A DNA stretch of 44,792 nt from a virus (Duplodnaviria > Heunggongvirae > Uroviricota > Caudoviricetes). The translations under genes and the position numbers were made by a program. The notes under the pieces were generated by a model. That model was given only the letters and a program-made list of their open reading frames with translations, did no database searches and was not told where the DNA came from. Positions 34,122 through 35,404 of the stretch are shown one piece after another. The stretch spans positions 85,919-130,710 of the IMG/VR virus record IMGVR_UViG_3300008113_000307. One strand, written 5' to 3'. How positions within the stretch are numbered: the stretch's first letter is position 1; the number at the start of each line of letters is the position of its first letter.

Positions 34122-34457
34122 TTAGAACTGATCTGGCCAATCTCTAAACAATGCATGTTGAATAGTTGAACAATCCACAAACTGATTGAATGAGCGATGT
34201 TTGTCTTCGAGTTCACCTTCAAGTGGTGCTACTCGTTTGAATGCTGAATCCATCTGTGCCATGTCTCTAAACTCCATCAGGATCATAAATTCTGGCATGT
34301 CTGCGATGCTACGAAATCCCATCTTGCAGCGTGTGATTCTGTAGGTTTCCATGCGTCCTTCACTCACCAAGTGATCAAAGAATCCCTTCATGTTGTTGAC
34401 CCAGTCAAGATCAGAAATGTCGCCAGCCTTGTTGGCCCAAATTGTATATACATCCAT
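34122..34457 (-). CDS. DUF6614-like small protein (dimeric alpha/beta-barrel-like)
   Basis: YRITRCKMGFRS...EFMILMEFRDMAQMDSAF...H pattern resembles DUF6614 as I recall it. Confidence 0.55.
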   Translation of the reverse strand: MDVYTIWANKAGDISDLDWVNNMKGFFDHLVSEGRMETYRITRCKMGFRSIADMPEFMILMEFRDMAQMDSAFKRVAPLEGELEDKHRSFNQFVDCSTIQHALFRDWPDQF

Positions 34458-34460
34458 AAT

Positions 34461-34904
34461 TTACTCCGCGGGTCCCAGTAGTTCGAACCCATCTATTTCC
34501 TGTTTGTACAAGTGTGCTTGCTCAAGGTACAGGTATTCAAACCCCCGAGCACGATAAATGGCACACTCTGTTTTCATTGTTTCTATGCCTAGCCGTAACC
34601 GTGGATTATGATAATTCCAGGCAAACTGGTCACACAAGGCATTACAGTCGTCAAAGCGTCTGATCAGGCTCCAAGCCACCAGTTGATCTTGATCGTAGTA
34701 GCCTATCACGTCGGCCATGGGATCTGTATATCTGCTGTGAAACATGGGCATGACACTGGCAAAACGTTTGTGATTGCAGTACTGCCTGTAAATTTGGTCC
34801 AACTGATCAAGTGTATGTGGATCTCTATCCACAATGTATCGCCAGGTCACTGTGGGTGTGTACAGGGTCTTGGCCAAATTGATTCTAGCAAACTGGTAGC
34901 TCAT
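34461..34904 (-). CDS. ATE_C-like (ATE1/Bpt aminoacyl-tRNA-protein transferase) GNAT-fold protein
   Basis: YYDQDQLVAWS...FAWNY..P.LRLGIETMK.E...YRARGFEYLYL...YKQ...FELL parallels the ATE_C pattern, including the YK motif. No ATE_N domain. Confidence 0.6.
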   Translation of the reverse strand: MSYQFARINLAKTLYTPTVTWRYIVDRDPHTLDQLDQIYRQYCNHKRFASVMPMFHSRYTDPMADVIGYYDQDQLVAWSLIRRFDDCNALCDQFAWNYHNPRLRLGIETMKTECAIYRARGFEYLYLEQAHLYKQEIDGFELLGPAE

Positions 34905-35404
34905 GCTCTGGGATCCTGCCGATGTTCAAACAACTGCTGCAGGTACTCTTCTGGCCAGGCGTGATAGAAACCCTTGTTGGCCATCATGCGAGCTTTGACA
35001 TCAAGGTCACTGAGACTTTGGCACATGGCCAGGGCCCATGTACCTTGGTTCATACAGACGCCATTCACTATCTCTGGATCATCAGGATGATCCTCTAACA
35101 CAATCATGTCAGCAGCCAGCAAGAAATCTTGATTGGCAGCACTTAGCCTGGGCTCAAAACATTCTCGAGTCCAGGCCACAGGATCGTACGCAAAAATTAC
35201 CACTTGTGCGCTGCCGAGCCCTTGTGCAGCCAGTGCTTCAAGATCAAAGTAAGGATCAGTGCCCAGTCGTATGTCCACTTGATTGTTGAGTCTGGCTCTG
35301 CGAGCATAGGGGCACGGGCTCCAGTTGCCCAGGGCCGGATGTGGTACTTCAAGAAAATTTTCAGACCAGGCAAGTATATCCTGTTTGACTTGTTGTAAAT
35401 CCAT
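34901..35404 (-). CDS. DUF1415-like protein
   Basis: ILAWSENFL...PCPYARRA...LEDHPDDP resembles the DUF1415 CPFA and HP motifs. TAATG and ATGA overlaps with neighbours. Confidence 0.55.
   Translation of the reverse strand: MDLQQVKQDILAWSENFLEVPHPALGNWSPCPYARRARLNNQVDIRLGTDPYFDLEALAAQGLGSAQVVIFAYDPVAWTRECFEPRLSAANQDFLLAADMIVLEDHPDDPEIVNGVCMNQGTWALAMCQSLSDLDVKARMMANKGFYHAWPEEYLQQLFEHRQDPRA

Follow-up and report, generated by a model that had tools for sequence, protein, structure and literature searches.

The window analysed here is a stretch of 44,792 nucleotides (nt) covering bases 85919-130710 of the 130.7-kb viral record IMGVR_UViG_3300008113_000307, and within it we studied a cassette of three small genes at positions 34122-35404, the middle one of which is predicted to encode a trimmed relative of the ATE1-type aminoacyl-tRNA transferases. 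The record has a completeness of 38% according to CheckV. The window phage is of the giant T4-like kind and comes from freshwater metagenomes, since its close relatives are IMG/VR contigs of about 340 kb that are 95-99% complete (CheckV). The three genes are the following:

34901-35404, minus strand: 167-amino-acid (aa) protein, predicted to be of the minimal thiolate-heme 'sandwich' type (AlphaFold2 (AF2) model, VIA-align, weak DUF6875 match)
34461-34904, minus strand: 147-aa stand-alone ATE_C-like GNAT, putative aminoacyl-tRNA-dependent transferase (profile homology, AF2 model, conserved residues)
34122-34457, minus strand: 111-aa DUF6614 protein (Pfam PF20319)

A three-gene module had been proposed for these positions in an earlier, sequence-only reading of the window, and the list of open reading frames (ORFs) together with the sequence confirmed it. 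The 167-aa gene is joined to a 96-aa gene upstream of it by TAATG at 35404, the 167-aa and 147-aa genes share an ATGA overlap (34901-34904), and a 3-nt gap (TAA-ATT-ATG) separates the 147-aa gene from the 111-aa gene. Metagenomic homologues at E<=0.001 numbered 2180, 2628 and 949 for the three proteins, the last number being that of the DUF6614 protein. As each of them has hundreds to thousands of conserved homologues, we take the trio to be real genes and not chance ORFs.

For the 147-aa protein, phmmer was run exhaustively against 1.8 billion representatives and returned 124 relatives, which were of two kinds, short forms of 140-150 aa and long forms of 225-268 aa. Several of the long forms exceeded the Pfam cut-off for ATE_C, with scores of up to 33.8 bits. 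A family profile built from 40 sequences was searched against all PDB sequences and found ATE1 arginyltransferases only (7wfx at E 1.5e-6; 7tif, 8e3s and 8j6v at E 3.2e-5), with no acetyltransferase among the matches. Because the long-form relatives pass the cut-off and the family profile finds only ATE1 in the PDB, the homology to ATE_C appears secured, and judged by these profiles the 147-aa protein is genuinely related to the ATE1/Bpt catalytic domain, in a trimmed form. It begins at the strand that follows ATE_N in ATE1, and ATE_N itself, with its Cys motif and acidic-N-terminus pocket, gave no hmmscan match in the short or the long forms. Searches of PDB sequences with each trio protein singly gave nothing useful, and a search of NCBIfam gave no match.

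Residues were mapped by hidden Markov model (HMM) alignment to KlAte1 (a chain with four extra N-terminal residues), in an ungapped stretch anchored on the invariant Gly106, and conservation was counted over 40 short and long family members. W96 corresponds to KlAte1 W260 and is kept in 39 of the 40, S/T109 corresponds to S273 (32/40), E113 to E277 (37/40) and Y133-K134 to Y303-K304 (38/40 each), while Leu takes the place of Y289, as it does in Bpt. The family also conserves R/K118 and R7. In KlAte1, W260, S273, E277, Y303 and K304 have mutational support, and E277 is the only charged residue in the Arg-side-chain pocket, the corresponding residue being Gln in the Leu-specific Bpt (PMC9351520). 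The earlier description of a minimal ATE_C-like GNAT that keeps the YK motif and lacks ATE_N was therefore correct. With ATE1/Bpt (ATE_N + ATE_C; 7WFX, 7TIF, 8E3S, 8TZV) the phage protein shares a homologous GNAT catalytic core, including the G-x7-E, W and Y-K positions, by which KlAte1 binds the Arg moiety and the 3' end of the tRNA. Unlike them, it is only 147 aa long, has no ATE_N, Zn/Fe-S Cys motif, basic alpha-3 region or C-terminal domain, is linked to a heme-like protein and is phage-restricted as far as searched.

The AF2 model of the 147-aa protein (predicted local distance difference test, pLDDT, 94.7) is a bare GNAT core without an insertion. Foldseek and VIA-align placed MprF/L-PGS, FemX, Sbb17/Sba18 and ATE1 in the top tier of its fold matches, and no Mom structure was present among the matches listed. 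The best overlays were on the C-terminal, tRNA-facing GNAT domains of L-PGS/MprF (Z 14.5/14.1), FemX (Z 14.2) and Sbb17 (Z 12.5), and in FemX, MprF/L-PGS and the streptothricin enzymes Sbb17/Sba18 it was always the C-terminal GNAT domain that matched. The acceptors of these enzymes are small molecules, lipids or amino sugars. They are tandem GNATs with an N-terminal domain that binds the acceptor, whereas the phage protein has one domain. As the N-terminal domains of FemX, MprF and Sbb17 bind non-protein acceptors, the modelled overlays fit a one-domain enzyme that would need either a partner or a small acceptor.

The 167-aa protein, encoded directly upstream, has a pI (isoelectric point) of 4.5. 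Among 13 of its relatives, with identities down to 18%, C31, P32, A34, D105, H106 and P107 are invariant, giving the motifs CP[FY]A[RK] (C31-P32-x-A34 followed by Arg or Lys) and D105-H-P107, and N119, Q129, Y147, W150 and R162 are also invariant. The protein matched phrog_28122 at 1.2e-11, and its neighbour clusters in the Atlas are labelled DUF1415 and DUF6875. The sequence-only reading had called it DUF1415-like, a label that finds some support in these clusters and in a DUF1415 match in one of the 13 relatives (E 0.033). With hmmscan, however, DUF6875 was favoured, at E 0.0024 over residues 8-47 of the protein itself and with matches in 8 of the 13 relatives. A DUF1415 family search gave no match in the phage's own genome or in the control genomes and is hence uninformative, and PF08892 (YqcI/YcgG) gave no match in the 167-aa protein. 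DUF6875 has been described as a thiolate-ligated heme family, 'cytochrome P422', with the ligand Cys in an RxGxVCP motif (bioRxiv 10.64898/2025.12.11.692455). The stretch matched by the DUF6875 model is the one that holds the invariant C31. The protein resembles P422 (DUF6875) and DUF1415 proteins in an N-terminal Gly-x-x-x-Cys-Pro motif of the heme-ligand type, and it differs from them in a score below the Pfam cut-off and in a match limited to the first ~40 residues. The motifs of P422 for its substrate tryptophan are not evident in it, although no search was aimed at them.

The AF2 model of the 167-aa protein (pLDDT 92.7) has its elements in the order a1, a2, b1, a3, b2, a4, b3, b4, a5. In an exhaustive VIA-align search, apo-AglA (9ub3_A) was the lone standout, with Z 8.0, a root-mean-square deviation of 3.7 and 149 of the 167 residues aligned; the next match had Z 4.1. 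AglA is the prototype of the YqcI/YcgG heme enzymes; its four-stranded sheet is covered by three helices on one side and by two on the opposite side, and Cys44 is the axial ligand (PMC12866846). The topology of our model (four-stranded sheet, 3 + 2 helices) agrees with that description, and Cys31 lies just before helix 2. AglA has 274 aa and passes PF08892, whereas the phage protein has 167 aa and does not. On the model, the protein is likely to be a minimal thiolate-heme 'sandwich' protein of the AglA / YqcI-YcgG / DUF6875-P422 / DUF1415 kind. A search of the PDB with the profile of the 167-aa family gave only the CPY stretch of a glutaredoxin at E 1.1, which was taken as a chance match.

The third protein, of 111 aa, matched DUF6614 (PF20319) over residues 1-110 with E 9.7e-22 and 77.6 bits against a cut-off of 25, and all of its 949 homologues carry PF20319. 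By this measure it is a clear member of the family, as had been proposed for this flank of the 147-aa gene. A link of DUF6614 to the anti-Druantia protein Druad1 was considered and rejected, as Druad1 has 44 aa and the annotation is nominal only.

Linkage of the three genes was surveyed in about 95 loci (numbered L082 and the like below). The heme-like gene, that is, the homologue of the 167-aa gene, lies directly upstream in every short-form locus with an intact 5' flank. The pairing persists in lineages that are 35-48% identical and have unrelated flanks (L082, L083, L097, L098 and L101), these flanks being dCMP deaminase in L082, DUF2828 and 2-oxoglutarate (2OG) oxygenases in L083, ribonucleotide reductase (RNR) small subunit, MazG and PhoH in L097, and baseplate genes in L098. 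In three long-form loci (L093, L094 and L096) the order is reversed, with the heme-like gene directly downstream, beside PAP2 and SET genes, and five long-form loci have no heme-like gene nearby. The long form may act on a different acceptor. The complete 158-kb genome L090 (IMGVR_UViG_3300020477_000001) carries a 262-aa long-form ATE_C-like gene followed by an S26 signal-peptidase-like gene. The DUF6614 gene is missing from some cassettes; in loci where it is present at 76-85% protein identity, the ATE_C-like protein is only 45% and the heme-like protein 33% identical, which makes the DUF6614 protein an unusually conserved one. The genes therefore co-occur elsewhere, across divergent lineages, the ATE_C-like gene being accompanied by the heme-like gene and usually also by the DUF6614 gene. 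The sequence-only reading had also seen the cassette as fused to a tail-chaperone operon. The link to tail/baseplate genes turned out to be incidental, as the pair has RNR, dCMP deaminase, PAP2 or SET genes for neighbours in other lineages, and the position behind baseplate genes is a feature of the lineage and not of the cassette.

Among 50,697 records of cultured phages, no match was found for the region (megablast) or for the 147-aa, 111-aa and long-form proteins (tblastn). Only the 167-aa protein gave matches there, to the marine podophages HMO-2011 (gp66) and Roseobacter phage CRP-345, with 27-28% identity (tblastn). In gp66 of Puniceispirillum phage HMO-2011 (GU557055.1 50770-51297) CPYAK and HPD are kept, as seen in a pairwise check, and the 8.5 kb examined around it showed neither an ATE_C-like or DUF6614 gene nor an amidinotransferase gene. 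A scan of 185,579 species genomes gave three loci, and no cellular context was found, with phage flanks checked for two of the three. Two of these, L099 and L100 (NZ_JBBAKG010000001.1 and NZ_JBBAKG010000003.1), are contigs of 183 and 148 kb of the metagenome-assembled genome (MAG) 'Haliscomenobacter sp. EUL_031'. They are syntenic with the window phage (tape-measure-like gene, baseplate hub, cassette, SegE, radical SAM) and probably belong to phages whose contigs ended up in a bacterial MAG. The same cassette is present on a short MAG contig, which is the third locus.

Additionally, according to a tally of the survey table, one or two genes of ~340-380 aa lie at the cassette junctions in ~33 of the ~95 loci. 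These inserts of ~1.1 kb had been considered as homing endonucleases, which was rejected because their profile identifies amidinotransferases: it matched AGAT at 6.9e-21, HsvA at 1.1e-19, SxtG at 6.7e-17 and StrB1 at 6.7e-13 in the PDB. Invariant in the family are G223-H224-x-D226 (GHxDG) and D355-G-G-x-H359-C360 (DGGxHC), which hold the catalytic His/Asp and the C-terminal Cys. By profile and catalytic residues, the junction genes can be assigned to the L-arginine amidinotransferases of the AGAT/StrB1/HsvA/SxtG type. In L083:6541-8653 the cassette (heme-like, ATE_C-like and amidinotransferase genes) is followed by three genes of ~220-245 aa, two of which encode 2OG-Fe(II) oxygenases (PF13759). 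The window phage has no amidinotransferase in its cassette and three paralogues elsewhere in its own genome:

24574-25767, plus strand: L-arginine amidinotransferase paralogue, between gp47- and gp46-like genes (family profile)
Record positions 4662-5792 and 63908-64927, strand not given: the other two amidinotransferase paralogues (own-genome search)

One paralogue lies beside a sugar epimerase/dehydratase, a DegT-type aminotransferase fragment and GTP cyclohydrolase I, another beside a NodU/CmcH carbamoyltransferase, and a radical SAM is also among the neighbours. The presence of three paralogues among sugar and amine genes suggests an extensive capacity for glycan, amine or DNA tailoring.

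Upstream of the trio in the window, two further genes form its context:

35404-35694, minus strand: 96-aa gene directly upstream of the trio (no family match)
35619-36461, minus strand: 280-aa T4-type baseplate hub gene (PF12322 at 9.9e-14; phrog_150 baseplate hub at 7.5e-17)

The 96-aa gene is conserved in the window lineage only and shares 76 nt (35619-35694), read in another frame, with the 3' end of the baseplate-hub gene. Neither promoter nor terminator signals within the cassette rose above the level expected from shuffling, and a T4-type late box was not found upstream of the hub gene on the minus strand. As such signals were not found, the probable co-transcription of the cassette is deduced from the gene spacing. 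The only exact TATAAATA in the window is at 36470-36477 (plus strand), ~25 nt upstream of the likely ATG of a 970-aa tape-measure-like gene. It falls in the region from which this gene and the baseplate-hub gene diverge, and no matching box was seen for the minus-strand genes. An ORF at 33739-34044, just downstream of the trio, was not counted as a gene. A GIY-YIG nuclease gene is found next door to the cassette, and the genome also has radical SAMs and GTP cyclohydrolase I. The record carries 34 tRNA genes outside the window, at record positions 20539-33806, which cover nearly all amino acids and include four tRNA-Arg genes (tct, acg, tcg and cct).

The arrangement of the genes, their homologies and linkage, and the predicted folds and conserved residues of the proteins lead us to infer that the cassette encodes an aminoacyl-tRNA-dependent GNAT in trimmed ATE_C form with a thiolate-heme partner. 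The closest parallel for such a pair comes from argolaphos biosynthesis, in which AglC, together with ArgRS, tRNA and Arg, produces AMPn-Arg, the substrate that the N-epsilon-hydroxylase AglA (9UB3) then hydroxylates (PMC12866846). In a table of argolaphos clusters, GNAT-type aminoacyl-tRNA ligases are listed next to the YqcI/YcgG gene (PMC8976061). The phage pair would bring the same two chemistries side by side, with the same arginine/guanidine theme. This theme recurs in the phage cassettes, in an ATE1-type transferase with the Arg-pocket Glu, in an AglA-type heme protein and in arginine amidinotransferases, and the AglA family is known for guanidine N-hydroxylation. The sequence-only reading had offered three functions, namely the tagging of host defence proteins for ClpS-ClpAP, the modification of virion proteins and the production of a small molecule by the three proteins together. 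The last of these fits best, because the fold of the 167-aa protein resembles that of AglA, whose step in argolaphos biosynthesis follows that of an Arg-tRNA-dependent ligase (PMC12866846).

We therefore tentatively favour, with slightly less than even confidence, the view that the trio is a mobile phage tailoring cassette for the tRNA-dependent aminoacylation and oxidation of a small amine or guanidino acceptor, and not of protein N-termini. A small-molecule acceptor is preferred because the three arginine/guanidine-themed enzyme types recur together and because of the argolaphos precedent. According to this proposal, the 147-aa protein would be the aminoacyl-tRNA-facing half of an ATE1-type transferase and would move the amino acid from a charged tRNA to the amine of the acceptor. 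As the residue corresponding to ATE1 Glu277 is retained, the donor amino acid would probably be a basic one, for which Arg is the natural first guess. The 167-aa protein would bind heme via Cys31 and, with a host reductase, oxidise the substrate or the product, for example by N-hydroxylation of a guanidine, and the DUF6614 protein may be accessory. The amidinotransferases in the cassettes of many relatives would make the guanidino group, a task for which the paralogues elsewhere in the genome may serve in the window phage. The order of these steps, like a benefit of the product to the phage, is conjectural. In a more far-reaching version, which we consider possible and on the whole doubtful, a single-domain ATE1 relative that draws on Arg-tRNA, or on some other charged tRNA, would act together with amidinotransferases and a minimal thiolate-heme oxygenase in a widespread, phage-only pathway to a hydroxyguanidine or amidine conjugate, which might serve as a metabolite or antimetabolite or else as a glycan or DNA appendage.

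However, a number of observations weigh against the tailoring cassette. In the 147-aa protein itself the match to Pfam ATE_C is weak, with E 0.0099 and a score of 16.9 bits that falls short of the cut-off (25). The basic alpha-3 helix of KlAte1 (Lys112-Lys123), which binds the tRNA acceptor arm, lies N-terminal to the aligned part and appears to be missing from the short form, and the protein is mildly acidic (pI 5.9). ATE1 and FemX, against which a Foldseek comparison had been proposed earlier, were indeed in the top tier, but they were tied there with tandem acyl-coenzyme A (CoA) GNATs: VipF scored Z 14.6, MAB_4324 13.5 and MshD 12.6, and the VipF-type overlay is on the second of the two domains. 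On these models, fold alone does not tell aminoacyl-tRNA-dependent from acyl-CoA GNATs and so does not name the donor, about which the conserved residues appear more telling. For the 167-aa protein, the DUF6875 score of 18.4 bits is below the Pfam cut-off of 24.5, the Z of 8.0 for AglA is at the edge of what VIA-align calls common, and a Foldseek search with the model gave no match. Ferredoxin (Fer2) is absent from the record of the window phage and from three relatives that are 95-99% complete. The pairing also has exceptions, since the cultured phages HMO-2011 and CRP-345 have the heme-like gene alone, and a whole-record search found no heme-like gene in four of the long-form loci that lack one nearby, including the complete 158-kb genome, so that the heme-like and ATE_C-like genes can work apart. 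Finally, the argolaphos parallel is best described as a functional analogy and not as orthology, because AglC belongs to a different GNAT subfamily; the candidate tRNA-dependent ligases of argolaphos are GNATs of ~340 aa (AlpF, pfam13480; AlpO, COG3146) and not ATE_C (PMC8976061), and no phosphonate genes accompany the phage cassette.

Among the other explanations, the aminoacylation of protein N-termini or side chains in the manner of ATE1/Bpt holds up best, and we regard it as unlikely. The cassette would then create N-degrons for ClpS-ClpAP or modify the baseplate, with a partner supplying the acceptor-binding half. The only solved relatives by sequence are indeed protein arginyltransferases, whose catalytic and Arg-pocket residues are kept; the cassette is packed tightly behind baseplate genes in the window lineage and in L098, and translational coupling would suit a split enzyme. 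However, the pocket for an N-terminal Asp or Glu, common to ATE1 and Bpt, sits in ATE_N (Arg80, Tyr25 and Tyr87 of KlAte1), which is absent here (PMC9351520), and the 167-aa partner does not have the ATE_N fold. This weakens the N-degron function suggested earlier. In other lineages the cassette is found in unrelated, non-structural neighbourhoods, and amidinotransferases and a fold of the heme-oxygenase type would be unexpected for an N-degron tagger.

An aminoacylation of nucleic acid, similar to that by Mom, seems rather improbable. Here the amino acid of the tRNA would be transferred to a base or sugar appendage of the phage DNA and elaborated by the heme protein and the amidinotransferases, which would block host nucleases. 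Phage Mu Mom is a single-domain GNAT that uses Gly-tRNA to modify double-stranded DNA (PMC13219725). It had been stated that no characterised phage system resembles the cassette, which needs tempering in view of Mom, as both are single-domain phage GNATs and the use of charged tRNA outside translation, known for Mom, is proposed for the 147-aa protein. A phage ATE-type enzyme was not reported in the literature searched. The nucleotide-metabolism flanks in other lineages (RNR, dCMP deaminase, MazG, PhoH) and a genome rich in candidate modification genes, such as the radical SAMs, GTP cyclohydrolase I and the adjacent GIY-YIG nuclease, would agree with DNA modification. Mom, however, belongs to another GNAT subfamily, works alone and has an essential insertion resembling a helix-turn-helix (HTH) and a basic DNA cleft, for which the minimal, paired 147-aa protein has no room. 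Its sequence kinship is to ATE_C and not to Mom, no Mom structure was among its listed fold matches, and both it and the 167-aa protein are acidic (pI 5.9 and 4.5).

We give least credit to an ordinary acyl-CoA GNAT that has drifted towards ATE_C and acylates a small molecule or a protein beside unrelated cargo genes: the scores of VipF, MAB_4324 and MshD, as high as those of the tRNA-dependent enzymes, the direct ATE_C match below the cut-off and the missing region of the tRNA-arm-binding helix would suit it, but the whole-PDB profile search gave only ATE1, the equivalents of the ATE1-specific W260, E277 and Y303-K304 are conserved, the beta4-alpha3 junction (P101-R-L-R-L-G106-I-E108) was seen by inspection to lack the Q/R-x-x-G-x-G/A CoA-pyrophosphate motif, and the adjacency with the heme-like gene is kept across lineages, even through a reversal of gene order.

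Outside translation, charged tRNA is known to be used in the chemistry of cell walls, lipids, antibiotics and N-degrons. A single phage DNA modification, that by Mom, has joined these uses since 2026 (PMC13219725). If the tailoring cassette is what we propose, it would add a viral branch to this use of charged tRNA, based on a trimmed enzyme of the ATE1 type, which large aquatic phages carry in abundance. The cassette would also provide a minimal test case for how little of the ATE1 scaffold may suffice. The pairing with a thiolate-heme sandwich fold offers a hypothesis for two families that occur in thousands of metagenomic sequences, DUF6614 and the DUF1415/DUF6875-like proteins, and should the phage-only pathway exist, it would give DUF6614 and the DUF1415-like phage proteins a first function. 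Gp66 of the cultured phage HMO-2011 is an experimental entry for the heme part. Should a guanidino or hydroxyguanidino compound prove to be the product, it would show that phages turn arginine into specialised metabolites or modifications while they infect their hosts.

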